DNA of 64,000 nt, taken from assembly GCA_052390515.1 (NCBI GenBank), contig JBQTGV010000001.1, positions 1 to 64,000 on the forward strand, in the 5' to 3' direction. This stretch comes from Candidatus Eiseniibacteriota bacterium (GTDB lineage: Bacteria > ARS69). Of this stretch, positions 8,245 to 48,715 are shown piece after piece. The translations under genes and the position numbers were made by a program. The notes under the pieces are model-generated. The model worked only from the letters and a program-made list of their open reading frames with translations, made no database searches and was not told the origin of the DNA. How positions within the stretch are numbered: the first letter of the stretch is position 1; every line of letters starts with the position of its first letter.

Positions 8245-10863
8245 GTGATGATCCTGCTCCGCCCCTCGCTCGCCGCGGCCATCGTGCTGCTGCTCGCCGG
8301 AACCGCCGCCTCGACACCCTTCTCCCCCGCCTCGCTCGACTCGACCATCGAGGCCTGTCTTCTCGAGGTGAGCGCGGACAGCCTGGAGAGCTACATCCAG
8401 GCGATGCAGGACTTCACGACGAGACACACGAACTCGGACACGACGTCGTCGACCGCGGGGATCGGGGCCGCGCGTCGATGGGTGCACGCGAAGTTCACCG
8501 AGTTCGCGAACCAGGGCGGCAACATCACCGCGAGCTACCACACCTTCAACGGAACGATCGGCGGCATCACCAAGGCGCACCGCAACGTCGTCGGCGAGAT
8601 TCCCGGGACCGCGCCCGCCTCCGAGCGCCGCATCTACGTGATCGGCGGGCATCTGGACAGCCGGAACGAGAACGTCAACGACTCGCTGGGTACGGCGTAC
8701 GGCGCCGACGACGATGCGAGCGGCGTGGCCTGCCTACTGGAGGCCGCCCGCGTCATGTCGACCCGAAGCTGGCCGCACACGCTGCGCTTCATCGCCTTCA
8801 CCGGCGAGGAGCAGGGACTTTTCGGCTCGGGGGCATACGCCCGCGACGCCTTCTTCGCCGGCGAGGCGATCGCCGCCATGCTCAACAACGACACCATGGC
8901 GAGCACGATCGGGATGCCGTCGCCGGACAGCACCGTCGTGCAGACGGACACGACCCTCGCTCGGGTATTCGCCGACATTCCGGCGGAGGGTCCGCACCGG
9001 CAGTTCCAGCGGTACCTGACCGCCATGGGCAACGCTTACGTACCGGTCCAGAACATCGTCGTCATCCCGGCGGTGGACCGTCCGGGGCGCGGCGGCGATC
9101 ACCAGTCGTTCAACGCGAATGGCTTCACCGCCATCCGCTACATGGAATACCTGGAGGAGACCTGGCGGCAGCACACCGCTCTCGGCGACACCCTCGGAGC
9201 GCACCTCGACATGAACTACTGCCGGCGCAACGCACAGGTGGACGTGGCCACGCTCGGGAACCTGGCGGCCTCTCCGGTCTCGCCGTCCGGGTTCACCGTC
9301 GCGGACGTGGGGGACTCCACCGGCTTCCGCCTCGTGTGGCCGAGCACTGCCGGTGCCGCCGGTTACCTCATCACGCAGCGGCTGCCGGCCAGCCTGGATT
9401 ACGACGTGGTGACCGACGTCGGGCTGGTCAACCAGCAGGTGGTCGCGCCGCTCTCAGACAGCGTGTGGTTCGGGCTGTCCGCGTACGACTCCGAGGGTCA
9501 TCGGGCGCTCGTGCTCGAGGAGAAGCTCGGCGTGCTGTCGTCCATCCCGGTCGCGCCGGTGAACGTCGCCGCTTCCCCGGACGGCGACTCCATCCTCCTG
9601 ACCTGGACACCGAACGCCGAGGCCGACGTGCTCGGCTATCACGTGCATCGCTCCACGACACCGGGGTCCGGCTACGTGCAGATCACCGGGAGCCCCGTTG
9701 CGTCTGCTGCGTTCGACGACGCGACCGCGCTGGCACAGACGAAGTACTACTACGTCGTGACCGCGGTCGATGCGTCGCTCAACGCCAGCGGCTTCTCCCA
9801 GGAGGTGTTCGGGCAGCTCGTGTCCCTCGACGCCGGTATCCTCTTCGTGGACGAGACGAAGGTCGGCGCGACCGCGTGGTTCCCGAACGACGCGCTGGCG
9901 GACTCGGTGTACGCCGTGATGATGACGATTGCGCACGACGTCTGGGACGTGGACGCGCTGGGGGTGCCCTCGCTCTCCGACCTCGGTCCGTACTCGTCGG
10001 TGATGTGGATCGCCGACGACTTCACGAGCACCTTCCAGGGCGCGCCGATCATCACGCAGTTCCTGCCGGACGCCGAGACGACGCTCGAGCAGTACATGGA
10101 CCTGGGCGGCAACGTGATGCTCGCGGGATGGGAGTCGGCGAAGGGCTTCGCTCCGATCGGCAGCTACCCGTTCGATCTGGGAGCCGGCGATTTCCTCTAC
10201 GACCGATTCGGCGTGGACGACGTGAGCTCGAAGACGCAGCAGAGGTTCAACGGCGGAGTCGGGCAGGGGTTCTTCGCCGACGTGGCGCTCGAGCCGCTGC
10301 GGCTCTCCGGCGCGTGGACCGGCCGGCTGACCCGCGTCGAGTACGTGACCGCCGCGCGTCCCGACGCGAACGTCGGTTATCTATTCGATTCGGACGATCC
10401 GGACTCCGCGTATCACCTGGCGCCGTGCGCCCTGTACCGCGACGGGGGGAGCTATCGGGCCGTCTGGTGGGGCTTTCCGCTGTACCACCTGAGCACCGCC
10501 GACGCGCAGTCCGCGATCGTCGCGGCGATGACCTACTTCGGCGAGCTGCCTCCCACCGGGGCTCCCGACGTGGCGCGCTCCGGTGCGCTTTCGCTGCACC
10601 AGAACCGCCCGAACCCATTCCGGGACGCCACCACCATCCGCTACAGCGTCTTCGGGGAGCAGGCCGACGTCGAGCTGGCGATCTTCGATCTGGCCGGAAG
10701 GCGCGTGCACACGCTGGTCTCCGGCAAGGTACCCGGCGGCCTGCACGATGCCGTCTGGCAGGGTCGTAACGACGACGGGCAGCGCGTCGCGTCGGGAGTG
10801 TACTTCTATCGGTTGAAGGGCGAGAACCGGACGGTCACCAAGAAGCTGATGCTGCTGCGCTGA
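8245..10863 (+). CDS. Secreted M28 metallopeptidase with FN3-like domains and a FlgD-Ig/T9SS-like C-terminal domain
   Basis: Signal peptide; GGHLDS, GADDDASG, FTGEEQGLFGS, LNNDTM, GDHQSF; C-terminal QNRPNPF...IFDLAGRRV...SGVYFYRL...TKKLMLLR. Confidence 0.88.
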   Translation: MMILLRPSLAAAIVLLLAGTAASTPFSPASLDSTIEACLLEVSADSLESYIQAMQDFTTRHTNSDTTSSTAGIGAARRWVHAKFTEFANQGGNITASYHTFNGTIGGITKAHRNVVGEIPGTAPASERRIYVIGGHLDSRNENVNDSLGTAYGADDDASGVACLLEAARVMSTRSWPHTLRFIAFTGEEQGLFGSGAYARDAFFAGEAIAAMLNNDTMASTIGMPSPDSTVVQTDTTLARVFADIPAEGPHRQFQRYLTAMGNAYVPVQNIVVIPAVDRPGRGGDHQSFNANGFTAIRYMEYLEETWRQHTALGDTLGAHLDMNYCRRNAQVDVATLGNLAASPVSPSGFTVADVGDSTGFRLVWPSTAGAAGYLITQRLPASLDYDVVTDVGLVNQQVVAPLSDSVWFGLSAYDSEGHRALVLEEKLGVLSSIPVAPVNVAASPDGDSILLTWTPNAEADVLGYHVHRSTTPGSGYVQITGSPVASAAFDDATALAQTKYYYVVTAVDASLNASGFSQEVFGQLVSLDAGILFVDETKVGATAWFPNDALADSVYAVMMTIAHDVWDVDALGVPSLSDLGPYSSVMWIADDFTSTFQGAPIITQFLPDAETTLEQYMDLGGNVMLAGWESAKGFAPIGSYPFDLGAGDFLYDRFGVDDVSSKTQQRFNGGVGQGFFADVALEPLRLSGAWTGRLTRVEYVTAARPDANVGYLFDSDDPDSAYHLAPCALYRDGGSYRAVWWGFPLYHLSTADAQSAIVAAMTYFGELPPTGAPDVARSGALSLHQNRPNPFRDATTIRYSVFGEQADVELAIFDLAGRRVHTLVSGKVPGGLHDAVWQGRNDDGQRVASGVYFYRLKGENRTVTKKLMLLR

Positions 10864-17029: not shown

Positions 17030-17038
17030 GCCTCGGGA

Positions 17039-17116: not shown

Positions 17117-17132
17117 AATCCGATATCGGATT
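17117..17132. promoter_or_regulatory. Perfect 16-bp palindrome, candidate operator
   Basis: AATCCGATATCGGATT is its own reverse complement, is AT-rich against the background, and lies 30 bp upstream of the ATG at 17163. Confidence 0.55.
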
Positions 17133-17162
17133 GCCTGCTTCCTGCGAAACCCGGGAGGGGTC

Positions 17163-20027
17163 ATGCGTCGACGTACGGTCCGGGCCGCCATCGTGTCCGC
17201 CCTCGTGATCGCCCTGGCCGCGACGGGCGCGGCTTCGCACACCCCCGTGAAGTCCGAGGCACCCCTGCTCACCCCGAGGCCCGACGAGATCCTCGTGCGC
17301 TGCCGGGTCTTCCACGACCAGAACGCCGACGGCGTGCGGCAGGCCGGCGAGCCGGGGCTCGCCGGCGTGGGGATCCAGAACGGCGTCACCACCCGGTTCA
17401 CCGACCCGCAGGGCAACCTGGACGTGCGCGTGGACAGGAACCTCTACCGCTTCGCCACGCTGCGGATCCCGGCTGGCTGGTGGCCGACGACGACCTGGTA
17501 CCGCTGGGTCCCCGCCGGCTCGCTCGGGCCGGTCTCCGCGGACTTCGGACTCAGGACCGAGCCACGCACCGCGACCGATCCGGTCCGCTGGGTGCACATC
17601 TCCGACACGCAAGTGCTCTCCTGGGGCACGAACATCGACATCCGTCCGGATCTCCAGGCCATCAACGAACTGTCCGATCCGCCGCTCTTCCTCGTGAACA
17701 CCGGCGATCTCGTCGAGGTCGGTTCCGACACGACGCACTGGAACAACTACGTGACGCAGGTCGCGACGTCGACGGCACCGGTGTTCCACGTGCCCGGCAA
17801 CCATGACACGCTCGGCACGGCCATACCGCTCGCGAACTACGAGAAGTACGTCGGCCCGCCCTACTACGACATGGACGTGGGCGGCTGGCGGTTCATCTTC
17901 TACAACGCGGAGGCGGCGGCAGTCGGGACGCCCGCGCAGGACATGTGGTTGGACGAGATCTTCACGACGGTCCCCCTCGGGCGTCCTCTCGCGCTCTTCC
18001 AGCACCGCATGCTGGCGGAGATCAACCAGAACAAAGTGTACTCGTGGGCGCAGCGCGGACTGCACGTGTGTTTCTCCGGCCACTGGCATAGCCACTCGTT
18101 CTCGCGGCACCCGTTCGGCATCCTGGACTACAACCTCAGTCGGACGTCGGTCGGTCCGCTCGACCGCACGCCGCGATCCTTCGGTATCGTGACCTGCGCG
18201 GCCGACGGCACCGTCTCGTACGAGCTGCGCCGTCTCGGAGTGGACCATCGCTCCAACCTGGCGCATCCGCGCCCGGACGGCGTCTACTCCGGCTCCACGC
18301 TGGACGTGCTGGTGCAGGCCTACGACACGTCCTCCCCGGTGCAGTCCCTGACCGCCGTGCTCTCCGGACTCACGGGAGCGCTGCCCCCGATCTCGCTCCG
18401 CCAGGAAGGCGTCTCGCTGTGGCGCGGCACGCTGGACGTCGGCTCGCTGACGGCGGGATGCTACGACGTGGACGTGATCGGGTCCTTCGAGGACGGCCCG
18501 GGCATCGGCCTGCAGAGCACGTTCCTGCTGACCGGCGTCCCCGCGGCGGCACGCGTGCCGGGAGCGGACTGGCCCATGTTCCGGAAGTGTGCCGCCGGAT
18601 CCAGCTTCACAGGGACACCGCTCGAGCCGCCGCTCGAGCTCGCCTGGTCGACGCCTCTCCCGGGCATGGTCGAGCTGAACTCGCCGGTGGTGGCCTCCGG
18701 CAGGGTCTACATCGGATGCCGGTCGGAGAGCGGTGACATGAACGATGCGGGCGTGCTGTGCTGCGACGCCGCCACCGGCGCGACGCACTGGTTCACTCCC
18801 ATCTCCGGCGGGGTCGCGCTGGCTCCGGCAGTGGCCGGCGGGATCGTGATGGCCACGGCGATGACCGACTCCGTGTTCGGCCTGGACGCGGTGTCCGGCC
18901 AGACCGTGTGGAAGACGAAGGCCCCCGGAAACAACTACAAGATGACCGCGCCGATCTTCGAGGGGAACCGCGCCTGGGTCGGCGCCGAGCCCGCGCTGAT
19001 GACGATCGACCCCGCGAACGGACAGAAGGTGTGGACGTCGCCGAACCTCGGGCCGGCCTGGTACAGCACGATGTACACGGCGCCGGCGGTGAGCGCGAGC
19101 CACGTCTACTGCGGCTTCTACGGCACGCCCGGCATCTTCCCCGACGGCTTCGCCGTGCTGAATCGTGCCACCGGGGCGACGGTCTTCCAGCAGAACGGCG
19201 CCTTCCGGTCCGCGATCTGCGCGGGCGGCACGGTCTACCTCGTCGGGGGATCGACGGTCATCAACCAGGTGATCACCGCGCGGGACGTGGTGGGCAACGT
19301 GATCTGGTCTTCGTCCAAAGTCCTGGACCAGGGATCGGGCGCGCCCGCGCTGGGGCACGGGGTCCTCGTGGTCGGCGGCGCGAACGGCGCCATGGAGGGC
19401 TTCCGCGCTTCGGATGGCGCGAACCTGTGGACGAGGCCCGTCGGCGCCTCGCTCTACGACATGTCGCCCAACCGGGTACGCGTCAAGGACACGATCGGCA
19501 CGCCGGCGATCGCCGACAGCGTGGTGTTCCTCGGATCCTCCGACGGCAACCTCTACGCGCTGGACCTCGCTTCGGGAGCGGAGCTCTCGCGGACGTACCT
19601 GGGGACGCCGATCGCGTCGTCGCCGGCGATCTCCGGGAACATGCTCTTCGTGGGCGCGAGCGATGGCCATCTGTACGGCTTCGTCGGGCTCGGCGCGGAA
19701 GGGGCGCGGGCCTTCGCCTCCTTCTCCGAGGACCTCGGCAAGGCGAGCTTTTTCGCCCTGCACCCGCCGCGGCCCAACCCCAGCGCGGGCCCCGTGCTGC
19801 TCGAGTGGGTGGTCCCGCGCCGAGCCCAGGTGCGCCTCGACGTGGTCGACGTGCAGGGCCGCGTGGTCCGGACGCTGGTCGACGGACCGGCCTCCGCCGG
19901 CGAGAACTTCTCCCGCTGGGACGGGCGAAACAGCGAAGGCGACGAGGTCGCGGCCGGGATCTACTTCGTCCGGCTCCGCGCGGACGGTCACTCCGGCAGC
20001 CGGAAGCTCGTCCGCCTGCGCGGCTGA
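17163..20027 (+). CDS. Secreted calcineurin-like metallophosphoesterase with PQQ-like beta-propeller and FlgD-Ig/T9SS-like C-terminal domain
   Basis: Signal peptide; HISDTQ, NTGDLV, PGNHD, SGHWH; WPMFR and SSPAI...GASDGHLY propeller repeats; PNPSAG...AGIYFVRL...SRKLVRLRG. GGAGG RBS. Confidence 0.85.
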   Translation: MRRRTVRAAIVSALVIALAATGAASHTPVKSEAPLLTPRPDEILVRCRVFHDQNADGVRQAGEPGLAGVGIQNGVTTRFTDPQGNLDVRVDRNLYRFATLRIPAGWWPTTTWYRWVPAGSLGPVSADFGLRTEPRTATDPVRWVHISDTQVLSWGTNIDIRPDLQAINELSDPPLFLVNTGDLVEVGSDTTHWNNYVTQVATSTAPVFHVPGNHDTLGTAIPLANYEKYVGPPYYDMDVGGWRFIFYNAEAAAVGTPAQDMWLDEIFTTVPLGRPLALFQHRMLAEINQNKVYSWAQRGLHVCFSGHWHSHSFSRHPFGILDYNLSRTSVGPLDRTPRSFGIVTCAADGTVSYELRRLGVDHRSNLAHPRPDGVYSGSTLDVLVQAYDTSSPVQSLTAVLSGLTGALPPISLRQEGVSLWRGTLDVGSLTAGCYDVDVIGSFEDGPGIGLQSTFLLTGVPAAARVPGADWPMFRKCAAGSSFTGTPLEPPLELAWSTPLPGMVELNSPVVASGRVYIGCRSESGDMNDAGVLCCDAATGATHWFTPISGGVALAPAVAGGIVMATAMTDSVFGLDAVSGQTVWKTKAPGNNYKMTAPIFEGNRAWVGAEPALMTIDPANGQKVWTSPNLGPAWYSTMYTAPAVSASHVYCGFYGTPGIFPDGFAVLNRATGATVFQQNGAFRSAICAGGTVYLVGGSTVINQVITARDVVGNVIWSSSKVLDQGSGAPALGHGVLVVGGANGAMEGFRASDGANLWTRPVGASLYDMSPNRVRVKDTIGTPAIADSVVFLGSSDGNLYALDLASGAELSRTYLGTPIASSPAISGNMLFVGASDGHLYGFVGLGAEGARAFASFSEDLGKASFFALHPPRPNPSAGPVLLEWVVPRRAQVRLDVVDVQGRVVRTLVDGPASAGENFSRWDGRNSEGDEVAAGIYFVRLRADGHSGSRKLVRLRG

Positions 20028-21136: not shown

Positions 21137-22509
21137 ACGGTGTCGAGACCCCGTTCCTGACCGTCGCGCCGGAGCTGCTGCTGGCCGCGGTCGCCCTGCT
21201 CGTCGTCCTGCTCGGCTGGCGCTCCTTCTCGGTGCCCTCCTTCGGCGTGCTCGCGACGCTCGCGCTCCTGCCGCTGCTCAAGACGGCCGCGCACGACGGC
21301 GTGCTCGCTCGCTTTGCCGCGCCGGACGTGTTCACGTTCCTCGCCTTCGCCGGAACGATGGTGCTCCTGCTCCGCCGACGGGACGCCGCGTGGCGAAGCA
21401 TCCGCGTTCCCGTGCAGGCGCTCGCCGGGCTCGTCGCCTTCTTCCCCTGTGTGGTTCTCTCCTTCCTCGCCACGGAGGATCCCGCGCGGTCTCTCGTGGA
21501 GACTCTGTCCTACGGCGTGAACGCGGTTCTGCTCGGGCTCATCGTGTTCCACGTCCGCACCCGCGAGGACCTCTTCGCGTGCTTCCGCGCCTGGGAGGCC
21601 GGCGTCGTCCTGGCGGTGGCCGGCTCGGTGGGCGGCCTCGCGCTGCTGGTGACCGGAAACTTCGACACGCCGCTGACCGAGGGACCCAAGCTCGCTTCCA
21701 CGTTCAAGAAGTCGGGTCAGCTCTCCGCCTACCTGCTCCCGAGCCTCCCGATCCTGTGGTTCAACCTGCGCCATCTGTCCGCTTCGCGGCGCGCCCGTTC
21801 GGCGCGCACGGCCCTGATCGTCGCGTCGTTCGTCGCGTTGCTGGCCACGGGTTCGCGCACCGGCCTGGCCCTCGGCGCCGCCCTGGTCACGGTGCTGTTC
21901 GGGGCCGGGTGGGCTCGCGCGTTCCTGCAGGGGCGCGTGGCGCTGCGCGTGTCGGTCGCGGCGCTGTGCGTGCTGGCCGCGTTCCCGCTGGCGGCGCGCG
22001 CCATCGAGGCGCTGCCCTTCTCGTTCCACCGGGCTCTCTCGATCCTCGAGGGAGCGGACTCGCTGCAGTCGCTGAGTCCGACGCGCTACTACCAGTACCA
22101 GGGCTGGCTCGTGGCCGCCGCCGAGTTCCCGTGGACCGGGATCGGCACCGGCGATTTCAAGACGCGCGCCACGTCCCTCGCACCGGCGGCGTGGCACTCG
22201 CACGAGGTGCACAACACCTACCTCGGCGTCTGGGCGGAGACGGGCGTCCTGGGGATCGCCGGGCTCGCCGTCTTCTACCTCGGTGTGCTGCGCGCCGCCT
22301 GGCAGGTGCGCACCCGCGGCGACCGCGCGACCGCGGACCTCGGCCTCGCGCTCGTCGTCGCCATCCTCGCGTTGTTCCTCTACGGCGTGAGCAACTTCGG
22401 CCTGCGCATGCGCCACCTGTGGTCGGTGTTCGGACTCGCGGTCGCGGCCTGGAACGTCGTGGTCGCGCACGGGGCGAAGACGGGAACGGCCGAGGAGACG
22501 GCGGCGTGA
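21133..22509 (+). CDS. O-antigen ligase/polymerase (WaaL/Wzy family)
   Basis: Multi-TM; LLATGSRTG, PWTGIGTGDF, HNTYLGVWAETGVLG. TTG start overlaps the upstream TGA. Confidence 0.85.
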   Translation: MNGVETPFLTVAPELLLAAVALLVVLLGWRSFSVPSFGVLATLALLPLLKTAAHDGVLARFAAPDVFTFLAFAGTMVLLLRRRDAAWRSIRVPVQALAGLVAFFPCVVLSFLATEDPARSLVETLSYGVNAVLLGLIVFHVRTREDLFACFRAWEAGVVLAVAGSVGGLALLVTGNFDTPLTEGPKLASTFKKSGQLSAYLLPSLPILWFNLRHLSASRRARSARTALIVASFVALLATGSRTGLALGAALVTVLFGAGWARAFLQGRVALRVSVAALCVLAAFPLAARAIEALPFSFHRALSILEGADSLQSLSPTRYYQYQGWLVAAAEFPWTGIGTGDFKTRATSLAPAAWHSHEVHNTYLGVWAETGVLGIAGLAVFYLGVLRAAWQVRTRGDRATADLGLALVVAILALFLYGVSNFGLRMRHLWSVFGLAVAAWNVVVAHGAKTGTAEETAA

Positions 22510-24173
22510 GCCGTGGCGCGCGAAGCGCCGCGGAGTCGGTCGCGCGGGGGGGACGCGTGCTGCTGCTCGGTACGCTGGGCAGCAAGGCGCTGCGACTGGC
22601 CGGCGACCTGGTGGTGGGCCGACTCCTCGGACCGGCCGCGTTCGGCGTGGTCGCCGCTTCGACGAGCCTGGTCTCAATCCTCACGGAGGTCTGCCAGCTC
22701 GGAGTGCACCGCGGCGTGCTCCGCTTCTCCTCCGTGCTGGAGTCCCGCGGCGAGGCCGGCCGATCGAGAGCGCTGGCGCGGCGGGCGCTCGTCGTCCCGC
22801 TGGCCGGCGGACTCGTCGCCGTGGCCGCGGCGATTCTCGTCCGCGAGCCGCTGACGCGTGCGCTCTTCGGCGACGACGTCGATCCGTGGCTCCTTCCGGT
22901 GTTCGCCCTGGCGATTCCGCTGGGGGGTGCTGTGACCGTGCTGCAGTTCGCGGCGCGCGCGGCGAAGCGCTTCCGGGCCGATGCCGTCGTCGGCGAGGGG
23001 CTGAGGCTCGGGCTCCCGCTCGCGGCCACCTGCGTGCTGATCGGGCTCGGCTGGGGTCTGTGGGGTGTCGCGTGGGGACTCGTCGCCGGCCTCTTCGCCG
23101 CCGCCGCCCTGGGGTGGGCGGTGCTCGCGCGTGGAGGTCCGGGCGAACCACCCGCCAGCGCGCCCCAGGCTGAACGGCTGGGCGAAGTCCTGCGCGTCGC
23201 GTTGCCGCTCGCTCTGGCGAGCTCTGCCGTGCTGCTCATGAACGAGCTCGACAAGGTGCTGCTGGCCGTGTTCCGCCCGGAGGAGGACGTCGGGCGCTAC
23301 AACGCCGCGTTCCGGATCTCCCGCCAGGCCAACTTGCTGCTGCCCGCGCTAACCGGATCGATCGCGCCGTGGGTGGCGCCGCTGCTCGCCGAAGGCCGGG
23401 AGGAGGAGCTCCGCGATCTCTACCGGCGCACGACGCAGTGGACGCTGGCCGCGGGCCTTCCCGTCTTTGCCGTTCTGGTGCTCTTCGCCCCGCAGTTCCT
23501 GGCGCTCTTCGGTCCCTCGTTCGTCGAGGGCGGTGCGCTCCTGATCGTGCTCGCGCTCGGGCAGCTCGTCATCGCCGTGGCGGGAAGCGCGGCGATGGTG
23601 CTGCAGCTCTCCGGCCGCGAGCGGCTCGAGCTGCGCAACGGGGCGATGGCGCTCGGCCTCAACCTGACGATGAACCTGGTGCTCATCCCGGCTCACGGCG
23701 CGATGGGCGCGGCGGCGGCGACGGCCACGTCGCTCTCGTTCCTCAGCGTGATCCGCGTCGTGCAGGCGCGAAGAGTGCTCGGGACCGTTCCCTGGAGCGG
23801 TGCCACGAGCGGGGCGCTCCGCATGAGCTTCGTCGCGGCGGCGGGCGGGGCGCTAGCGGGCTTCGCCGCCGGCGCACTGTCGGCGTCCGCCCCGGTGATC
23901 GCGCTCGCCGCGTGCGCGGGGCTCATTACCGGCGCGCTCGCCTTCGTCGCCCTCGTCGGGCTGGATGCCGCGGACGCGGCGGTGCTGCCGGTGCCGAGGC
24001 GCTTCGTCCGCCGCCGCGCTGCGGATCCTAGCGGCGCCACCCCGGAAGCTCGATCCCGAGAAGGTTCTCCACCCGGTTCGTCTGCGGAACCAGCTGCTGA
24101 ACCAGCCAGCGCCGGTCCCGAGGATCGAGCGACGGCAGCCGCTCGTCCGGCCGGCCGAAGAACCAGCGCCTGA
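22506..24173 (+). CDS. Wzx-type flippase / polysaccharide biosynthesis protein
   Basis: RLLGPAAFG, LDKVLL, VGRYNAAFR, LIPAHGAMGAAAAT; GTGA coupling. The last ~45 codons are low-complexity and overlap the opposite gene. Confidence 0.82.
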   Translation: MSRGARSAAESVARGGRVLLLGTLGSKALRLAGDLVVGRLLGPAAFGVVAASTSLVSILTEVCQLGVHRGVLRFSSVLESRGEAGRSRALARRALVVPLAGGLVAVAAAILVREPLTRALFGDDVDPWLLPVFALAIPLGGAVTVLQFAARAAKRFRADAVVGEGLRLGLPLAATCVLIGLGWGLWGVAWGLVAGLFAAAALGWAVLARGGPGEPPASAPQAERLGEVLRVALPLALASSAVLLMNELDKVLLAVFRPEEDVGRYNAAFRISRQANLLLPALTGSIAPWVAPLLAEGREEELRDLYRRTTQWTLAAGLPVFAVLVLFAPQFLALFGPSFVEGGALLIVLALGQLVIAVAGSAAMVLQLSGRERLELRNGAMALGLNLTMNLVLIPAHGAMGAAAATATSLSFLSVIRVVQARRVLGTVPWSGATSGALRMSFVAAAGGALAGFAAGALSASAPVIALAACAGLITGALAFVALVGLDAADAAVLPVPRRFVRRRAADPSGATPEARSREGSPPGSSAEPAAEPASAGPEDRATAAARPAGRRTSA

Positions 24174-24882
24174 GACCGAGGCCCTTGGCGGTCTCGACGA
24201 GCCCGTGCAGGCCCGCCGTGCGAAGGTGGTCGGCCGTCCGCCAGCCGAACTTCGCCACGCCGGGGTGCTTCGGGAGCGAAGCCTCGTTCACCTTGCGGTC
24301 GAGGTCGGCAGGCACGGGCGCCGCCTCGAGGCCCAGGCAATTGCAGAGGCGCTTCGCGAACGCCTCCGAGTCGCCGCGCAGATCCTCCAGGAAGAGCACC
24401 GAAACGTTCGCCTTCCCGACCGCGGAGTACCAGCGCTCGAGATGATCCGCGTAGCGGCTGCTGTCCAGCATCTCCGGATGGTGCTCGAGCGCCTGCCGGA
24501 ACGGGAGCGTGGTCATGCCATAGCGCCGCATGTGGATCCACAGGGAGTGCAGCCGCTCCGCGGGATGCCGCAGCGTCACGACGATCCTGGGCCGCCCCAG
24601 AGAAGCCGCGACACGGTCTGGAACCTCCGGTGGATCGAAGTAGCTCGGCGACACCTCCGCCGTGAGCGCGAAGCCTCCCACGGAGGGGAACCGTCCCGCA
24701 TACCACTCGAGGCCGCGGTCGTAGTAGCGGCTGAAGAAGTTGACTTCCTTCACGCGCCGGGGAAGCGCGACGTCGCCGCGGGAGGCGAGATACTCGTGGA
24801 TCCAGGTCGTTCCGGTCTTCTGCGGGCCGACGGCGATCGCACCCGGCAGCGCGCGTCGAGCCGAGGCGGGAGGCGTCCTCAT
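24028..24882 (-). CDS. PAPS-dependent sulfotransferase
   Basis: VGPQKTGTTWI (5'-PSB loop), KEVNFF, EVSPSY, LRHPAERLHS (3'-PB). Confidence 0.88.
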   Translation of the reverse strand: MRTPPASARRALPGAIAVGPQKTGTTWIHEYLASRGDVALPRRVKEVNFFSRYYDRGLEWYAGRFPSVGGFALTAEVSPSYFDPPEVPDRVAASLGRPRIVVTLRHPAERLHSLWIHMRRYGMTTLPFRQALEHHPEMLDSSRYADHLERWYSAVGKANVSVLFLEDLRGDSEAFAKRLCNCLGLEAAPVPADLDRKVNEASLPKHPGVAKFGWRTADHLRTAGLHGLVETAKGLGLRRWFFGRPDERLPSLDPRDRRWLVQQLVPQTNRVENLLGIELPGWRR

Positions 24883-24983
24883 GTCCCGGATTCGACCCGT
24901 CGCATCCCCTTCTTGAGCCTCAACCACCCTCGGCGGGCTGCCGAAACACTCCACGAAACGACCACAGGAGGCCGGAAAGCCAC

Positions 24984-25736
24984 ATGAAGAAACAGGCGAT
25001 CGAGCAGGCGGTCCGAGGACTGTTCCGGAAGCTCGGCTACGACATCGTGCGGTTCCAGCAGCTCGACTTCACCGAGGAGGAGCACGAGATCATCCGGGCG
25101 GTGAAGCCGTACACGATGACGAGCACCGAGAGCATCTACGCCCTGATCCAGGCCGTGAAGTACGTCGTCCGGCACGGGATCCAGGGCGACATCGTGGAGT
25201 GCGGGACCTGGAAGGGCGGCTCGGTCATGGCCGTGGCCCGGACCCTGATGCAGCTCGATCGGATGGACCGCGACCTGTGGCTCTTCGACACGTTCGAGGG
25301 GATGACGGCTCCGGGGACGACGGACGTCACGCTCCGCGGCGAGACGGCGGCGGAGACGTTCCAGCAGCGCAAGAGCGGCGAGTCCTCGTCCGACTGGTGC
25401 CTGGCCCCCATCGACGAGGTCCGTCGCGCGGTCTTCAGCACCGGATACGACCGGGAGCGCATCCACTTCGTCAAGGGACGCGTCGAGGACACCATTCCGG
25501 CGAACGCCCCGAAGCGCATCGCCCTCCTGCGCATGGACACGGACTGGTACGAGTCCACGCGGCACGAGTTCGAGCACCTGTACCCGCGCCTCTCCAGCGG
25601 CGGCGTGCTCATCCTCGACGACTACGGCTATTGGCTCGGCGTCAAGAAGGCGGCCGACGAGTACTTCGAGCGGAACGACGTGAAGATCCTGCTGAACCGG
25701 ATCGATTACAGCGCACGGATCGGGATCAAGACGTAG
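24984..25736 (+). CDS. TylF/MycF/NovP-family O-methyltransferase
   Basis: GDIVECGTWKGGS, LFDTFEG, LLRMDTDWYEST, LILDDYG. AGGAGG RBS. Confidence 0.92.
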   Translation: MKKQAIEQAVRGLFRKLGYDIVRFQQLDFTEEEHEIIRAVKPYTMTSTESIYALIQAVKYVVRHGIQGDIVECGTWKGGSVMAVARTLMQLDRMDRDLWLFDTFEGMTAPGTTDVTLRGETAAETFQQRKSGESSSDWCLAPIDEVRRAVFSTGYDRERIHFVKGRVEDTIPANAPKRIALLRMDTDWYESTRHEFEHLYPRLSSGGVLILDDYGYWLGVKKAADEYFERNDVKILLNRIDYSARIGIKT

Positions 25737-26502: not shown

Positions 26503-27252
26503 ATGATCGTCCAGAAGCGAACGGGATCCCTCCGACTGATCCGCCAGCATGACCACGCGCTCGCTTCGGGGCGGCTCGCGCTCGAGTGGGTCGGCAACGG
26601 CGCGAAGCCGGAGGCACTGTCCCTCGAGACGGTGCTCGGCGTCTCACTCCACGACGTCGGCTGGTCTCGCGCGGACGAGACGCCGCGCCGGGACGAAGCT
26701 AGCGGCGGGGTCGTCGGATTCGAGACCTTCCCCGCGGAGGAGCGGGCGGCCCTCTATGAAGAGGGGCTCGACTTCGTCGAGCGCGTGCATCCTTGGTGCG
26801 CTCTCTTGTGCACGATGCACTACGCGGGCTTCGGTGTGTCCGAGGACTTTCGGCGGCGGCAGAAAGCTCGACGCGAGAGGCTCGAGCGGACGCTGCCACT
26901 GGGACCGGAAGACGTCGTCCGCGCCCGGTACGCCCACGCGTGCCTGCGCCACTTCGACGATCTCTCGCTGGTCGCCTGCTTGGCCGGACCGCTGGCCCTC
27001 GATCCGCCGCCTTGGCTGGACGCGGACCGCGTGGCGAAGGGTCCGGACGGGATCCTCCGGGACGTTCGATGGCGGGACGAGGAAGCGATGACGATCCATC
27101 CCTTCCCGTTCCGTCAGCCCGTCGTGCTGGAGATCCCCTGCCGGGACCTCCCCTTACGGTTCGAAGGGCCGGAGGAGCTGCGGGCTGCCTGGGACGCCGC
27201 CCCGTGGCGGCGCCACCAGGTCCGTCTCGTTCCGCGCGACGATCACCGGTAG
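26503..27252 (+). CDS. DUF3891-like protein
   Basis: LIRQHDHA, HDVGW, MHY, DDLSL, PFPF. Confidence 0.7.
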   Translation: MIVQKRTGSLRLIRQHDHALASGRLALEWVGNGAKPEALSLETVLGVSLHDVGWSRADETPRRDEASGGVVGFETFPAEERAALYEEGLDFVERVHPWCALLCTMHYAGFGVSEDFRRRQKARRERLERTLPLGPEDVVRARYAHACLRHFDDLSLVACLAGPLALDPPPWLDADRVAKGPDGILRDVRWRDEEAMTIHPFPFRQPVVLEIPCRDLPLRFEGPEELRAAWDAAPWRRHQVRLVPRDDHR

Positions 27253-28127
27253 ATCGACTTCACTTCGCCCCAGGTCGCCGGGTCGATGTCCACCGCGTCG
27301 CAATGAGGCACGCCCGAGGCTCCGTTGTTGTAGTTGTCCAGGCCCTCGGTGTACGAGCTGGTGGTGGATGGATGGATGGAGCAGGTGCCGATCGTCGGGA
27401 TGGGATTCAGCCCGCAGGAACTCGAGATCAGCGCCTCGGCGGCCGCGAGCGTCGCGGCGATCGGGCCGGAGCTCGCGCCGGCCAGGAGGTTGATCTTCGT
27501 CGCGATGACCTGATGCGCGAGCGAGATCAGCCCGTTGCCCTGAGCGGGCGTCCCGAAGATGGCGAGAAGCTCGGCCTGGGTATAGCTGATGCCCGCGATG
27601 GTGATCGGTCCGGACCACGCTTCGGGATGGTTCTTCCAGTACCCCTGCGTGCGCACGCAGTTGACCAAGGTCTGGGTGGTCGCGGCTATCTCCTGCGACC
27701 AACCGCTCGCCTCGTTCGTCGCATCGCCGTTCACGAGCGCGCGGAAGACGTACGCCGTCTCCGGGCTGAGCTCGTCCAGGGCGGTCGCGGTGAGACCCGT
27801 CTCGTCGAAGAGGTCGCCGATCTCCACCGTGACGACCGCGTTGCCCTCCGGAGTGAACGTCGTTCCGCCCCAGAGGTTGAGCGTGGCGGAACCGGTGAAG
27901 TCCGCCTCCTGCGGACTCGACCAGCCGTTCGCCACGAACTCGGCCCCCGTGATCCACTGGATGCGGAACCCAGCGGGCGCGCCGCTCGGTCCCACGGCCA
28001 CGGCGAGTGCGACCTTCGCCTGGCCGACGTTGCTGACGGCGAGCGAGGGGGTATCGTGCGGAACGGCGAACGCCGTGACCGGACCGGCGACGAGAACGAA
28101 AGTGGAGCACCGTAGGAATCGGTTCAT
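27243..28127 (-). CDS. Secreted hypothetical protein (FN3-like domain plus TQGYWKNH domain) with C-terminal TWGEVKSIYR
   Basis: AAGGAG RBS before MNRFLRCSTFVLVAGPVTAFA signal peptide; LSPETAYVFRA (FN3-like); CVRTQGYWKNHPEAW. Confidence 0.75.
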   Translation of the reverse strand: MNRFLRCSTFVLVAGPVTAFAVPHDTPSLAVSNVGQAKVALAVAVGPSGAPAGFRIQWITGAEFVANGWSSPQEADFTGSATLNLWGGTTFTPEGNAVVTVEIGDLFDETGLTATALDELSPETAYVFRALVNGDATNEASGWSQEIAATTQTLVNCVRTQGYWKNHPEAWSGPITIAGISYTQAELLAIFGTPAQGNGLISLAHQVIATKINLLAGASSGPIAATLAAAEALISSSCGLNPIPTIGTCSIHPSTTSSYTEGLDNYNNGASGVPHCDAVDIDPATWGEVKSIYR

Positions 28128-31001: not shown

Positions 31002-33659
31002 ATGAAACGGCTGCGATGGCAAGCGACTGCTTCGGCGGCTTGGCTCGGCGCGCTGCTCACGGCCGGGGCAGCGGCCGACGCCGGACCCCGCCTGGTCCTG
31101 ATCCCACAGCGCTCCGTCCCGATGGTGTCGTGCACCGTGCTGGTCCCCGCGGGCTCGGCCCTGGAGACGCCGGAGACGAACGGCGCCGCGCACTATCTGG
31201 AGCACCTGCTCTTCAACGGGACGACGACCCGGACCCGCGAGCAGATCTACTCCGAGACGGATCTGCTCGGCGCCTACAACAACGCTTCCACCCAGCGCGA
31301 GCGCACCGTCTTCCAGCTGCTGCTGCCGTCCGAGAACTGGCGCGAAGGTCTCGCGCTGCAGGCCGACATGCTGCTGCGCTCCACGCTTCCCCCGACGATG
31401 TTCGAGAAGGAGAAGGGCATCATCCTGGAGGAGCTCGCCAAGGACCGGACGAACCCCGAGTACGAGGCGGAGCGGTTCGTGCAGCGCGTCCTCTGGGGCG
31501 AAGATCCGCGCGCGCTGCCCGTGCTCGGGACGGAAGAGTCCATCTCGGGCATGGACCCCGGGGCGCTGGCGAAGTTCTACCAGGAGCGGTACCGGCCGGA
31601 GGGATTCACGATTGTCCTGATGGGCGACATCGACGAAGCGGAGGGGCGGGCCGAGCTCGAGCGGCTGTTCGGCAAGGCCGAGGGTGATGGGGCGACGAAG
31701 CCTGTCCCGCCACGGCCGGCGTTCCTTCCCGAGTCGGCGCTGCACCGCCACGAGATCACCGGGCTCGGCAAGACGAGCGTGACCTTGATGCTCCCGATGC
31801 CGGCTGTGTCGCTCGAGAGCTTCGCCGCGGCGCGGCTGCTAGCCACGGTGCTCTCCGACGGTGAGCAGAGCGCGGTGTCGCGGGCGGTGGAGGCTGCCGG
31901 CGCGACCGTGCTGTCGGCCGGCGCGTCTCTCGAGGCGGGCGAGCCATGGTCGCTGCTGGCGGTCTCGGTCGACGTCGCCGAAGGCGGGCCGAGCGGCGAG
32001 GCGGTCGTGCAGGCCATCCTCGCGCACCTCGTGAAGCTGGTCAGCGAGCCCTCCGTCGCGCACGATCTGCCGGCCGCGCAACGAACGCTGCTCGTCGAGG
32101 ACATCTCGCTGCGCGAGAAAATGCATTACTACGGCCTGATGCGCGCGGACCTGCTGGACGGAGGCGATCCGTCGATCGCCGAGTCCCTGCTGGTCCGGAC
32201 CCGGACCTGCAGCGAGCACAGCGTGAGGGAGGTCCTTCGCGACGCGCTCGCGTCCGGGCAGATCCTGACCACAACCGTCGGGCCGGGTGCCGGGGATGCC
32301 ATGACGCCGCTGACAGTGCCGCCGGTCCCGGCGGACGTACGATTCGCCATGGTAGTCGATGGGGCGCCCGTCGGGCCACTTGCGCTTCCACCCTCCCGGC
32401 CCGCGGTGACCGAACCCGAGTCCCGCCGCATCGTACTGCCGAACGGACTCACGCTGATCCACCAGGCCAGCCCCGACGCGCGGACCTTCGCCGTGCATGT
32501 CCTCTTCAAGGACCGCGCGGAGCTCGAGGAGCAGACCGGCGTGCCGCGCGGCACCTCCGACGTGATCCACCGCATGATGGCGCTCGGCACGGCGACGCTC
32601 GACGAGAACCGGCTCCGCGGACGGCTCGCAGAGCTAGGCACGAGCCTCAAGGTCACCGACGCGGACGGCATTCCCTACGACGACTACTACTTCAGTCCGG
32701 AGCACTCGTACGTGCGGCTGGAGACGATCGATTCGTTCGGCCTCGACGCGCTGGCCCTGCTCGGCGAGATCGTCGTCACTCCCCGGCTCACCGAGGAGAC
32801 GTTGGACAAGGCGAGGACCGCCGCGGCGACGCGCGCGGAGGCGGAGGTCGGATCGCCGCGGTCCGTGGCGGAGCGAGGATTCCTGGACGCGCTCGGGGCG
32901 AACCACCCCGAGTCCGGCGGCGTGCTCGGCTCGGCGGCGGCGATCCGCGGCCTGACGCTCGAGCAGGTGACGCAGCACCACGCGGCGATGACTGCACCGG
33001 AGCGTCTCGTGCTCGCCGTGTCCAGCAACCTGCCGTACGACGCCATCGAGGAGGCGGTCACCCGCGGTTTCCCCTCCGCCGGGGGGGGTGAGCCGCTACC
33101 CGCCCGAGACTGGCACGCGTCCGGTGAGCCAGCCCGTCACGAGACGCCGACCGGCCGCGAACAGTCCTGGATCCTGCTCGGTGCTCCGCTCGACGTGCCT
33201 TCAGCCGACGAAGCAGCGCTCCGCGTCGCCGTGGCCGTCCTCTCCGAGAGGCTCGCCGAGGAGCTCCGCGAGCGCGAAGGCCTCGCCTACTCGATCGGCG
33301 CTGGCGCGCGCCTTGAATCTCCCGGCGCGTACATCCGCATGTCCGCCGGTACGCGCCCCGAGAACCTCGAGCGTATGGAGGAGGGGATGCTCCGCGTCGC
33401 CGCCGAATTGGCCGCGCGGCCGCCGGCACAGGACGAGCTCACGGGCGCCCGCAACCGCGACGAGGGCCGCCGCCGCATGCGCCGCCTCACCCGCATCGGG
33501 CAGGCGCATGCCATGGCCATGGCGGAGCTGGCCGGGCGCTCGCCCACCGCGCTCGACGCGGATCTGCCCGCGCTCCGCTCGGTGACGCCGGAGGACGTCG
33601 CGCGCGTGGCATCCGCGTACCTCCGGTTCGAGCCGCGGATCGTCTCGGTCGCGCGTTGA
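31002..33659 (+). CDS. M16 (pitrilysin-like) zinc peptidase, exported
   Basis: Signal peptide; AHYLEHLLFNGT (HxxEH), EKGIILEE, second half with LPNGL and LREREGLAYS. Confidence 0.9.
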   Translation: MKRLRWQATASAAWLGALLTAGAAADAGPRLVLIPQRSVPMVSCTVLVPAGSALETPETNGAAHYLEHLLFNGTTTRTREQIYSETDLLGAYNNASTQRERTVFQLLLPSENWREGLALQADMLLRSTLPPTMFEKEKGIILEELAKDRTNPEYEAERFVQRVLWGEDPRALPVLGTEESISGMDPGALAKFYQERYRPEGFTIVLMGDIDEAEGRAELERLFGKAEGDGATKPVPPRPAFLPESALHRHEITGLGKTSVTLMLPMPAVSLESFAAARLLATVLSDGEQSAVSRAVEAAGATVLSAGASLEAGEPWSLLAVSVDVAEGGPSGEAVVQAILAHLVKLVSEPSVAHDLPAAQRTLLVEDISLREKMHYYGLMRADLLDGGDPSIAESLLVRTRTCSEHSVREVLRDALASGQILTTTVGPGAGDAMTPLTVPPVPADVRFAMVVDGAPVGPLALPPSRPAVTEPESRRIVLPNGLTLIHQASPDARTFAVHVLFKDRAELEEQTGVPRGTSDVIHRMMALGTATLDENRLRGRLAELGTSLKVTDADGIPYDDYYFSPEHSYVRLETIDSFGLDALALLGEIVVTPRLTEETLDKARTAAATRAEAEVGSPRSVAERGFLDALGANHPESGGVLGSAAAIRGLTLEQVTQHHAAMTAPERLVLAVSSNLPYDAIEEAVTRGFPSAGGGEPLPARDWHASGEPARHETPTGREQSWILLGAPLDVPSADEAALRVAVAVLSERLAEELREREGLAYSIGAGARLESPGAYIRMSAGTRPENLERMEEGMLRVAAELAARPPAQDELTGARNRDEGRRRMRRLTRIGQAHAMAMAELAGRSPTALDADLPALRSVTPEDVARVASAYLRFEPRIVSVAR

Positions 33660-36846: not shown

Positions 36847-37379
36847 AAGCGGCTCTGCCGGCTGCGTGCCTCGCCGTGCTGGCCGCGCTCGTCCCCACAT
36901 TCGCAGGAGCCGACGCGGGCGGTGCAGGCGACGCGGGCAGTCCGGCCGACGACGACGCCCGCCGCGAACCTTCGCTCTGGACCGTCGGCGCGGGCCGCTC
37001 CGGCTTCCGCGATGCTCCGGTCGCCGGGCTTCTGGCCGTCACGTACCACCATCGCCCGCTGGCCGGACCGGTCCGGCCGCTGGCAGGCGCGCTCGCTTCC
37101 GGGGACGGCAGCGGCTTCCTCTTCGGCGGATTGAGCTGCGACCTCGAGCTTCGCAGCGGGCTCGGAGCGACGCCGATCCTCACCGCCGGGTACTACGAGC
37201 GCGGCGGCGGCATGAACCTGGGCGGGGCGTTCGAGTTCCGTTCGGGGTTCGAGATCTACCATCGCGTGGGCAGCTTCTCCCGCGTCGGGCTCAGCATCCA
37301 CCACGTCTCCAACGCGGGGTTCTACGATCGGAATCCCGGGCAGGAGACGCTTTTCCTGTCGTACGGGGTGGCGCGGTAG
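36843..37379 (+). CDS. PagL-like outer-membrane acyloxyacyl hydrolase / lipid A deacylase
   Basis: Signal peptide; FEFRSG, HHVSNAG...NPGQE catalytic motif, beta-strand pattern. ATGA coupling. Confidence 0.82.
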   Translation: MKAALPAACLAVLAALVPTFAGADAGGAGDAGSPADDDARREPSLWTVGAGRSGFRDAPVAGLLAVTYHHRPLAGPVRPLAGALASGDGSGFLFGGLSCDLELRSGLGATPILTAGYYERGGGMNLGGAFEFRSGFEIYHRVGSFSRVGLSIHHVSNAGFYDRNPGQETLFLSYGVAR

Positions 37380-47614: not shown

Positions 47615-48715
47615 ATGCTGGCACTGCAGCGGTTCTCCGCGGTGGCGGTCTTCGTCTGGCTCAGCCTTCCCGTTCATGCCGCGACGATTCGCGTCCCCCA
47701 GGACCAGCCCACGATCAAGGCCGCAGTCGCCGCCGCGAATGCAGGTGACGTCGTACTCATCGCTTGCGGAAACTACGTCGAGAACGGGATCGTCGTGACG
47801 GTCCCCATCCAGTTGAAGAGCGAGACGGGCGATCCTTCCTGCGTTTCCGTCGACGCCTCGGGTGGCATCGCGTTTCATGCGTTCGGATCGGGTAGCAGCA
47901 TCACCCTGGATGGCATCCGCGTGTACCGCGGCTATCGCGGCCTGTCTTCCTCGGTCGCCACCACGATTCGATCCTGCGTCTTCGAGACGCTGGGGGCCGC
48001 CCCTGCCGGCTACGGCTATGCCGACGGTGGAGCCATCTCCGTGTCTGGGGTGACGGACGTCTACGACAGCGAGTTCCGCTGGAACTTCGCGGCGAACGGC
48101 GGCGCGGTCATTACTGGCCCCAATGCCGCCTTCTACCGTTGTCTGTTCGCTCACAACTTCGCCCTGGAAAACGGCGGCGCCATCGCCTCTTCGTCCTTGA
48201 ACACACGGCTCGTCGACTGCCTGTTCTTCCGCAACCAGTCGCTCGGCGGAGGATTCGGCGGAGCGCTGTACGCGGCGTCCAACGCATTCGTGAGCGGATG
48301 CACCTTCATCGAGAACGCCGCTGGCTTCGAGGCCGGCGCAGCCATGTACCTCACGGGAACCGCCCAGGTGGTCAACACCCTGATCGCGGTCAACTACGGC
48401 GGGGGCGCGGTCCGTTGCTCGGGCTCTCCGACGTTCTCCTGCTGCGACATCTACGGAAACGCGTACGGGGACTGGGTCTCGTGCATCGCTGGCCAGCTGG
48501 GCGTGAACGGGAACTTCTCCGCCGACCCGCTCTTCTGCGATTTGGCCGCCCGCGTGTTGACCCTGGACGCCGAGTCGCCCTGTCTGCCGGGAAACCACCC
48601 CGCGGGCTCCGCCTGCGGCCAGATCGGGAGGTTCGGGATGGGCTGCACCGTCGTCTCAGCGGGCCACGGACTGACGAGTGCCCCGTGGGGTCGGGTCAAG
48701 TCCCTGTACCGCTGA
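47615..48715 (+). CDS. Secreted right-handed beta-helix (Pmp/pectin-lyase-like) protein with C-terminal PWGRVKSLYR
   Basis: Signal peptide, VPQDQPTIKAAV, repeated FxxN/GGA(I/V/L) units, NFSADPLFC, SPCLPG. GGAGG RBS. Confidence 0.82.
   Translation: MLALQRFSAVAVFVWLSLPVHAATIRVPQDQPTIKAAVAAANAGDVVLIACGNYVENGIVVTVPIQLKSETGDPSCVSVDASGGIAFHAFGSGSSITLDGIRVYRGYRGLSSSVATTIRSCVFETLGAAPAGYGYADGGAISVSGVTDVYDSEFRWNFAANGGAVITGPNAAFYRCLFAHNFALENGGAIASSSLNTRLVDCLFFRNQSLGGGFGGALYAASNAFVSGCTFIENAAGFEAGAAMYLTGTAQVVNTLIAVNYGGGAVRCSGSPTFSCCDIYGNAYGDWVSCIAGQLGVNGNFSADPLFCDLAARVLTLDAESPCLPGNHPAGSACGQIGRFGMGCTVVSAGHGLTSAPWGRVKSLYR

Follow-up and report, generated by a model that had tools for sequence, protein, structure and literature searches.

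Two proteins encoded in the first 64 kb of contig JBQTGV010000001.1 from a Candidatus Eiseniibacteriota bacterium (a stretch of 70.5% G+C that was analysed as a whole and is called the window hereafter) share a short peptide at their exact C-terminus. The two proteins, P0003 and P0002, are otherwise dissimilar, and the shared ending, referred to here as the tail, recurs on exported-looking proteins of other uncultured bacteria. The tail seems to be a modular C-terminal sorting or anchoring tag that has no transmembrane segment and whose free C-terminal peptide would be read by a receptor in the envelope, an explanation to which we give an even chance. It is restricted to C-termini, goes together with signal peptides, behaves as a module, is conserved above the level of its cargo, and alternates with known sorting modules; its role in sorting or anchoring, the destination of the cargo, the receptor, and any cleavage of the tail are what we infer.

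A Shared Ending at the Protein Level

The first-pass annotation of the window had reported two open reading frames (ORFs) that end WGxVKS(I/L)YR-stop, an observation that holds on translation, in regular-expression searches, against shuffles of the DNA pattern, and in BLASTP. The expression WG.[VIL]K.[ILVM][YF]R occurs at just two sites in the six-frame translation of the window, both immediately before a stop codon, and a much looser expression adds a single site (22648–22671), which is internal and unrelated. The back-translated DNA pattern is matched twice, versus a mean of 0.00 expected from 100 dinucleotide-preserving shuffles of the window. No third copy was found in the window with a 24-column profile of 123 tails, in which the two window tails, themselves included in the profile, score 29.4 and 20.7 bits versus 8.5 bits for the next ORF.

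P0003 ends in DPATWGEVKSIYR-stop, and the coordinates 27243–27284 correspond to its stop codon and final 13 codons. The protein consists, in this order, of a signal peptide, an FN3-like beta-sandwich, a helical domain, a linker, and the tail; it has no Pfam or NCBIfam family above cut-off, and its homologues (291–321 amino acids) share its start Met. P0002 ends in TSAPWGRVKSLYR-stop and is composed of a signal peptide, a right-handed beta-helix (Pfam Beta_helix, E = 1.2e-9, 38.5 bits, cut-off 25.9), a Cys-rich end, and the tail. The signal peptides of both are putative assignments from the translated sequence. When the two proteins are compared by BLASTP, the tail is the top local match (8 of 14 residues identical) and the signal peptides are the second, beyond which nothing matches, and the two proteins are indeed, as had been claimed, without other similarity. 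Moreover, the third positions of the degenerate G, V, S, and R codons differ between the copies in four of four cases, and, therefore, conservation lies at the protein level and points to selection on the peptide and not to a DNA repeat.

Conservation and Predicted Structure of the Tail

A scan of contigs, with one genome per species, for the degenerate pattern W-G-x-(NTN)-K-x-(NTN)-Y-R-stop found at least 128 loci. The 128 listed comprise 130 distinct ORF ends, about 125 of which close real or locus-truncated ORFs, and the five chance-like matches are ORFs of 11–22 amino acids (L019, L048, L108, and L125) and a non-stop TGG (L105). The consensus of 121 tails, (C)-x-P-[VT]-P-[VT]-[ER]-x-x-[TS]-W-G-x-[IV]-K-[SA]-[LM]-Y-R-COOH, spans about 18–20 residues, and its end in a wider form reads [TS]-W-G-x-[IV]-[K/R]-[SA]-[LM]-[Y/H]-R-COOH after a proline-rich linker. 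The core of the tail is, thus, shared as originally described, but the module is about twice as long as the nine residues first noticed. Likewise, the Cys that was said to precede it is frequent but not universal, being located 9–11 residues before the Trp in 61 of the 121 tails and at most 25 residues before it in 71. Several positions that the scan pattern does not fix are conserved as well, with T or S before the Trp in 110/121 tails, V, T, or A at −14 in 103/121, V or T at −16 in 95/121, E or R at −13 in 73/121, and P at −15 in 66/121. Since these unselected positions are conserved, the tail module is, as judged from the alignment, homologous across unrelated cargo.

With P0003 as query, 7998 candidates were scored and 794 proteins reached E ≤ 0.001, of which 120 (the query and 119 others) were examined; the few relatives with names belong to Ca. 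Eisenbacteria. The motif lies within the last 20 residues in all 120 members, exactly at the terminus in 109 and followed by 1–3 extra residues in 11. In the 119 register-aligned tails, W and K are invariant, G is found in 100, Y in 92 (replaced by H in 15 and F in 8), and the terminal R in 108. The His for Tyr replacement (15/119) characterizes one subclade of the family. In an alignment of 56 P0003 homologues with a mean column identity of 46%, no substitution occurs at W286 or K290, the values for G287, Y293, and R294 are at least 90%, and among 48 homologues of P0002, with a mean column identity of 28%, C344, W358, and K362 make up three of the 12 invariant columns. At the level of these alignments, the tail is shown to be more strongly conserved than its cargo, with W and K among the few invariant columns of both window families. 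Both window proteins fit a proposed definition of the tag, namely [TS]-W-G-x-[IVL]-[KR]-x-[LMI]-[YHF]-R at 0–3 residues from the C-terminus of a protein with a signal peptide and with a Pro-rich linker before the motif, apart from the Pro that takes the place of Thr or Ser before the Trp in the tail of P0002, a replacement also seen in 6 of 119 P0003-family members.

In the AlphaFold2 model of P0003 (mean predicted local distance difference test, pLDDT, of 87.8), a helical domain comes after an FN3-like sandwich, and Foldseek returns FN3 matches for the N-terminal half with E of about 1e-5. The signal-peptide-like region is modelled apart from the fold, with a helix at residues 4–13 of low pLDDT. 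At the other end, residues 277–285 are coil and 286–293 a helix, with pLDDT blocks of 66 and 61 versus 85–98 for most of the fold, and the tail is predicted by this model to lie outside the fold on a linker. No hydrophobic stretch longer than 2–3 residues appears in the logo of the 121 tails, in agreement with the initial statement that the tail has no transmembrane helix. The short amphipathic helix that had been suggested is a putative one, as the helix is modelled at low pLDDT and the hydrophobic moments are alike for helix and strand.

The resemblance could also be accidental, or the tail could be a structural element of each fold with no shared function, given that the motif core is as short as nine residues. 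This explanation is extremely improbable, since the window holds two matches versus none expected, the great majority of scan matches end real ORFs and are flanked by conserved unselected positions, the cargo proteins are unrelated, distant homologues lack the tail, and the tail is predicted outside the fold.

Restriction to the C-Terminus of Exported Proteins

The motif is confined to C-termini. With a looser expression applied to all six frames of 384 kb of sequence (window and loci), 136 of 140 sites are exactly terminal, three have one extra residue, and one is internal, this being the chance-type match at L105. The count of 140 is biased by the way in which the loci were chosen, but 10 sites in the locus flanks fall outside the scan pattern and are unbiased, and seven of them are terminal, the other three lie one residue from the end, and internal sites are absent.

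The carriers also seem to be exported, and the expected enrichment was found by a crude heuristic, with signal-peptide-like N-termini in 60 of 75 tail ORFs versus 16 of 129 neighbouring ORFs without a type IX secretion system (T9SS) C-terminal domain (CTD) (score ≥ 2.5; Fisher p = 1.4e-22). An uncharged hydrophobic stretch follows the start in 60 of 67 tail ORFs (of 69 with a closed 5′ end that reach 100 amino acids, 67 have a start codon), and just 3 of 60 tail proteins have a lipobox-like motif. The proteins have a median length of 239 amino acids. A Pfam family is recognized in 15 of 60 complete tail proteins, including PD40 propeller, CBM96, Beta_helix/NosD, LTD (lamin-tail), DUF7901, DUF7451, ThuA, CBM_4_9, DUF4114, pectate lyase, and one weak SCP2 match, and NCBIfam names 7 of the 60, in none of which it covers the tail itself. 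Cargo types such as carbohydrate-binding modules and pectate-lyase-like beta-helices fit work outside the cell. Pfam recognizes no family in the other 45 of the 60, and the secreted proteins of the phyla that carry the tail are, accordingly, mostly dark matter.

A strict dependence on a free C-terminus is typical of recognition by PDZ- or S41-type proteins, and the tail could be a handle for a C-terminal protease or a quality-control factor, that is, a maturation propeptide or a degron, with the Pro-rich linker as a cleavage site. The window does encode an S41 peptidase (59476–61389, − strand; Peptidase_S41 at 82.9 bits plus an S41_N domain), and C-terminal processing proteases had been named as possible machinery in the first-pass annotation. 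However, this gene lies at least 11 kb from either copy of the tail, Pfam detects no PDZ domain in its product, and no linkage of S41 peptidases to tail genes was found in the window or in 80 flanked loci, beside whose tail genes no S41 gene recurs. Moreover, if the tail were a degron, its presence on so many stable-looking secreted folds would be surprising, as would its alternation with PEP-CTERM, IPTL-CTERM, T9SS CTDs, and dockerins (see below), and a role as a protease handle is very unlikely.

Exchange with Other C-Terminal Modules

The beta-helix family of P0002 shows how the tail is exchanged. In 119 homologues, the conserved Cys-rich end is followed by the tail in 77, by the tail with 4–13 extra residues in 9, by a variant tail in 5, by a T9SS-type CTD that starts at the same point in 23 (21 with precomputed PF13860 and/or PF18962 matches), and by a dockerin-like repeat in 1 (P0189), and 4 proteins stop at the conserved Cys; the classes other than the plain tail were read by eye from 42 sequences. 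None of the 23 CTD-bearing relatives contains the tail motif.

A second family was collected with a tail-bearing DNRLRE-domain protein of locus L004 as query, and 120 listed sequences, including the cluster of the query, were classified by regular expressions. The canonical tail is found in 35, a tail with Arg for Lys in 21, and a variant or extended tail in 11, and the rest have PEP-CTERM-like, IPTL-CTERM-like, T9SS-CTD-like, dockerin-like, or other ends. The Arg-bearing tails form a subclade (P0398–P0432 and P0486, relatives of L004:2004–2738). According to NCBIfam, the DNRLRE domain is directly followed by PEP-CTERM in P0476 (TIGR02595, 26.7 bits, cut-off 16), by IPTL-CTERM in P0467 and P0489 (TIGR04174, 26.5 and 24.8 bits, cut-off 20.5), by the T9SS type A domain in two further matches (TIGR04183, 41.4 and 38.1 bits), and by a GC-type dockerin in P0448 (NF041540, 34.5 bits), and in tail-bearing members the DNRLRE domain is the sole NCBIfam match.

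The tail of P0003 is also missing from part of its wider family. An exhaustive search of cluster representatives gave 3329 relatives at E ≤ 0.001, and among the best 150 of these 3329, which were inspected, 50 have the strict tail and 40 end at most two residues after the last Cys of the domain. Since such distant relatives stop at the last Cys, the tail is an add-on after the fold and not a part of it. In some P0003-like proteins (P0245, P0251, P0257, P0262, and P0276), a Cys-rich segment of about 40–60 residues stands between the helical domain and the tail, and the tail, thus, seems to follow whichever domain is last. By sequence comparison, the tail occupies the slot of four recognized sorting or anchoring modules, and this is the strongest comparative argument of the analysis.

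Distribution among Genomes

The contigs that hold the 128 listed loci were assigned to taxa by a hand tally of record titles. Ca. Eisenbacteria account for 33, Fibrobacteraceae or Fibrobacter sp. for 11, Latescibacteria or Latescibacterota for 7, Krumholzibacteriota or Krumholzibacteriia for 5, Gemmatimonadota for 3, and Zixibacteria, Effluviviaceae, and UBP1 for 1 each. Other named taxa contribute 9, of which four are chance-like matches and several others lie on short contigs, and 57 are labelled merely 'bacterium' or 'uncultured bacterium'. No Bacteroidota label occurs among the 71 named loci listed. Convincing tail ORFs were found on contigs labelled Kerfeldbacteria (L073, 66 kb), Polyangiaceae (L052, 2.2 kb), Verrucomicrobiia (L095/L096, 2.2 kb), and Anaerolineaceae (L122, 3.6 kb), which may be mis-binned short contigs or may reflect a range beyond the phyla related to the Fibrobacteres–Chlorobi–Bacteroidetes (FCB) group.

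The motif is not rare, as several metagenome-assembled genomes hold 2–5 copies each among the loci listed. Tandem paralogous tail genes are common, in runs of up to three or four genes (L040, L066, L076/L077, L089/L090, L095/L096, and L127/L128).

Proposed Role of the Tail

If the tail is a sorting or anchoring tag, the cargo would be exported by Sec through an ordinary and mostly non-lipoprotein signal peptide and would fold in the periplasm, leaving the tail outside the fold on a flexible linker. An envelope receptor would then read the tail as a free C-terminal peptide, probably in the form of a short helix, and would deliver the cargo to the outer envelope or the cell surface, or hold it there, and the Pro-rich linker could be a site of processing. 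Because the tail has no transmembrane helix, this receptor would be distinct from exosortase-type enzymes, and it would not be a reader of the Ig-like fold of T9SS CTDs either. The earlier suggestion of a surface-targeting or anchoring signal as the putative function is supported by the restriction to C-termini, the exported cargo, the lack of a curated domain that covers the tail, and its frequency.

Several points weigh against this interpretation. The exchange of the tail with other modules indicates, at the level of sequence, that it is a C-terminal module of exported proteins, but not what this module does. No receptor candidate for the tail emerged, and no conserved neighbour gene or operon machinery stands beside the tail genes in the 80 flanked loci. 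The helix of the tail is predicted with low confidence (pLDDT of about 61–66 in one AlphaFold2 model), and the mean hydrophobic moment of the tails is 0.48 at 100 degrees and 0.45–0.46 at 170–180 degrees, with shuffles at 0.36 and 0.35. The signal-peptide score is a home-made hydrophobicity heuristic that chooses the best among start codons, although controls were treated alike. In addition, every carrier among the 128 loci listed is an uncultured metagenome-assembled genome, and the taxonomic range and the counts per genome are lower bounds (at least 128 loci).

A broader proposal, which we rate somewhat short of an even chance, is that the tail marks the substrates of an unrecognized sorting system common to lineages of Ca. 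Eisenbacteria, Fibrobacterota-like bacteria, Latescibacterota, Krumholzibacteriota, Zixibacteria, and Gemmatimonadota. In this system, a free C-terminus of 18–20 residues without a transmembrane segment would be recognized by machinery of its own, distinct from exosortases, from sortases, and from the CTD-recognizing part of T9SS, and this machinery would bring perhaps a hundred mostly uncharacterized small proteins per genome to the cell surface, this number being a rough extrapolation from two copies in 64 kb. Sorting tags provide a cheap listing of the surface proteome, and the tail would serve this purpose in several large and wholly uncultured phyla. A small hidden Markov model (HMM) of the tail would improve the annotation of thousands of 'hypothetical proteins' and make the search for a receptor by phylogenetic profiling testable.

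Genomic Context

The genes of both tail-bearing proteins and those of two proteins with T9SS-type CTDs are located in the window (Table 1). The 3′ end of the P0003 gene (stop codon at 27243–27245) overlaps by 10 bases a convergent DUF3891 gene (26503–27252, + strand), so that the last three codons of the tail are also read on the other strand.

Table 1. Tail-bearing genes, their N- and C-terminal features, and T9SS-type CTDs encoded in the window.
Feature	Position	Strand	Basis
T9SS-type CTD of M28 peptidase (gene 8245–10863), residues 789–869	10609..10860	+	FlgD_ig 36.9 bits (cut-off 27), CHU_C 27.5, Por_Secre_tail 26.1 (just below 27)
T9SS-type CTD of metallophosphoesterase/PQQ-propeller protein (gene 16968–20027), residues 953–1006	19824..20024	+	FlgD_ig 35.4 bits (cut-off 27)
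Gene of tail-bearing protein 1 (P0003, 294 amino acids + stop)	27243..28127	−	ORF and translation
Signal-peptide-like N-terminus, P0003 residues 1–21	28065..28127	−	Basic residue, then uncharged hydrophobic stretch to A-F-A
Tail module copy 1, P0003 residues 277–294 (after invariant Cys276 to C-terminal Arg)	27246..27299	−	Homologue alignment
Gene of tail-bearing protein 2 (P0002, 366 amino acids + stop)	47615..48715	+	ORF
Signal-peptide-like N-terminus, P0002 residues 1–22, ending V-H-A	47615..47680	+	Translation; aligns with P0003 signal peptide
Tail module copy 2, P0002 residues 345–366 (after invariant Cys344 to C-terminal Arg)	48647..48712	+	Homologue alignment

When 1534 ORFs of the flanked loci were compared all against all by BLASTP, the recurrent neighbours of tail genes were T9SS-CTD proteins (16 of 80 flanked loci, by eye), paralogous tail proteins, and generic ABC ATPases. 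The window encodes lipopolysaccharide (LPS) and envelope-glycan functions (Wzy_C, polysaccharide flippase, PagL, GT87, PMT_2, and an STT3/AglB-like protein), which indicate a diderm organism whose surface is elaborate. One envelope-glycan cluster (20257–24170, 24031–25733, and 36561–37376) comprises a Wzy_C O-antigen ligase, a Polysacc_synt/MurJ-like flippase, a sulfotransferase, a TylF-type methyltransferase, and the PagL lipid A deacylase, and a tRNA-Gly(GCC) lies inside this region at 23957–24045. Four large membrane glycosyltransferase-like genes (5896–8160, +; 13532–15760, −; 33656–35773, +; 48659–50713, −), whose types include an STT3/AglB-like oligosaccharyltransferase, PMT_2, a PTPS-related/YfhO-like protein, and GT87, suggest protein or envelope glycosylation, which could bear on the attachment of surface proteins.

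Other genes of the window include an ORF of 1569 amino acids as translated from 41147 (41147–45853, +), with an AMP-binding enzyme and a C-terminal GNAT acetyltransferase, which is followed by an AMP-binding acyl-CoA-synthetase-like gene (45844–47544). Two overlapping + strand frames at 38.6–41.2 kb leave composition-based gene calls ambiguous. Moreover, two GDSL-type lipase/acylhydrolase genes are present (10938–13424, −, and 35368–36843, +), one of them with a long N-terminal membrane-like region (829 amino acids).

Comparison with Known Sorting Systems

The first-pass annotation allowed for an explanation of the tail by a characterized domain, but eight 30-residue tails match no family in Pfam or NCBIfam at E ≤ 10. 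No chain in the PDB matches the tail profile at E ≤ 10, and no description of the motif was found in the open-access full text of PMC and bioRxiv, although subscription papers could hold one.

The T9SS CTD is one of the closest known systems. It also occupies the extreme C-terminus of Sec-exported non-lipoprotein cargo in FCB-related phyla and ends in hydrophobic residues and Arg or Lys, it takes the place of the tail, and the tail its place, at one junction in each of two families, and both are present in the window. However, the CTD folds into an Ig-like beta-sandwich, whereas the tail has 18–20 residues and a predicted linker plus short helix, and just 18–22 residues follow the last Cys of the cargo in tail proteins of both window families. 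As described in excerpts of PMC11285876, the CTD sandwich comprises 70–100 residues. In an allied phylum, the basic terminal domain of F. succinogenes (residues 821–910, about 90 residues) is equated with the T9SS CTD in excerpts of PMC6851124, and the known signal there is, therefore, this long domain and not the tail.

The tail might still be a minimal T9SS signal without a CTD, its last residues being read by the same translocon or shuttle that handles CTD proteins. The mutual replacement in two cargo families and the presence of CTD proteins in the same genomes (two in the window, and in the 16 flanked loci mentioned above) are compatible with this, as is the fact that tail and CTD both end in a small residue, Leu, a hydrophobic residue, and Arg/Lys-COOH, with a basic residue 5–6 positions from the end. 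The C-terminal residues of the CTD matter, and the signal of HBP35 was mapped to the last 22 residues, according to the excerpts of PMC11285876, but the same excerpts describe the sandwich architecture as essential and C-terminal extensions as tolerated, whereas the tail is kept at the very end. In addition, when the tail is compared profile to profile (hhalign) with 44 CTD ends of these data, the probability is 0.0, on which grounds a truncated T9SS CTD was rejected. TIGR04183, PF18962, and PF13860 do not match isolated tails, and the CTD models of Pfam and NCBIfam do not match full-length P0002 or P0003, with the two CTD proteins of the window as positive controls. The Bacteroidota label is, as stated, absent from the named loci listed. 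A minimal T9SS signal is, overall, unlikely. No component of the T9SS machinery (SprA/Sov, PorV, PorU, and others) is encoded within the 64-kb window.

Outer-membrane beta-signals are short motifs that, like the tail, sit at a free C-terminus in proteins that diderms export by Sec, but they end in an aromatic residue and belong to beta-barrels. The tail, which ends in Arg (108/119) and is carried by FN3 plus helical domains, beta-helices, propellers, and carbohydrate-binding modules, was not assigned to this class.

The tail could also be a retention or tether element instead of a transport signal, holding proteins on the peptidoglycan, the interface of the outer membrane, or the S-layer, either non-covalently or through a basic residue, in loose analogy to Braun's lipoprotein (Lpp), whose C-terminal Lys is used for a covalent link to peptidoglycan. 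Trp, Tyr, Lys, and Arg are interfacial residues that would stand on a short predicted helix, the dockerins and IPTL-CTERM domains that alternate with the tail are anchoring modules, and the LPS and envelope-glycan genes of the window mark a diderm. IPTL-CTERM was reported on an S-layer protein in an excerpt of PMC8671808. However, a length of nine or ten residues is short for a membrane anchor that lies stably in the plane, extracellular-looking cargo would still have to cross the outer membrane, and the terminal Arg and the replacement of the conserved Lys by Arg in the DNRLRE subclade (21/120) argue against a Lys-specific covalent link; an Lpp-type peptidoglycan link was discarded on these grounds. 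A tether function is, in sum, distinctly unlikely.

Dockerins (type I-like, GC-type NF041540) resemble the tail as C-terminal anchoring modules that alternate with it, but they are cohesin-binding domains of about 60 residues, built from Ca-binding repeats, and are unlike the tail in sequence. IPTL-CTERM (TIGR04174) alternates with the tail on DNRLRE-domain proteins, and its signature (P0467, P0489, and P0457) shares with the first half of the tail the succession Pro ... Ser/Thr-x-Trp-Gly-x-Ile/Val. In IPTL-CTERM, however, a transmembrane helix and a basic cluster come next, whereas the tail ends seven residues after the Trp-Gly. Homology between the two is unsupported, as TIGR04174 scores no tail and the top 25 non-tail matches of the tail HMM contain no IPTL regions, and the resemblance in sequence is, at present, a lead.

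A machine for secretion or anchoring was discovered by way of each of the tags LPXTG, PEP-CTERM, and the T9SS CTD. The PEP-CTERM/exosortase and LPXTG/sortase systems are like the tail in relying on short tags that are found on many unrelated exported proteins, dispersed, restricted to lineages, and mutually swapping on cargo, but in their tags a signature motif is joined to a transmembrane helix and a basic cluster, and membrane enzymes process them. PEP-CTERM was rejected, as TIGR02595 does not match the tails and their logo contains neither a PEP motif nor a transmembrane helix, and so was a sortase substrate, since the LPXTG motif and the transmembrane helix are absent from the logo and no NCBIfam or Pfam model matches. 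Because it has no transmembrane stretch, the tail is not of the tripartite exosortase, sortase, or IPTL type. It is unusual in kind, with no transmembrane segment, no folded domain, about 20 residues, and a required free C-terminus, and its reader is, thus, likely to work differently from sortase-like enzymes.

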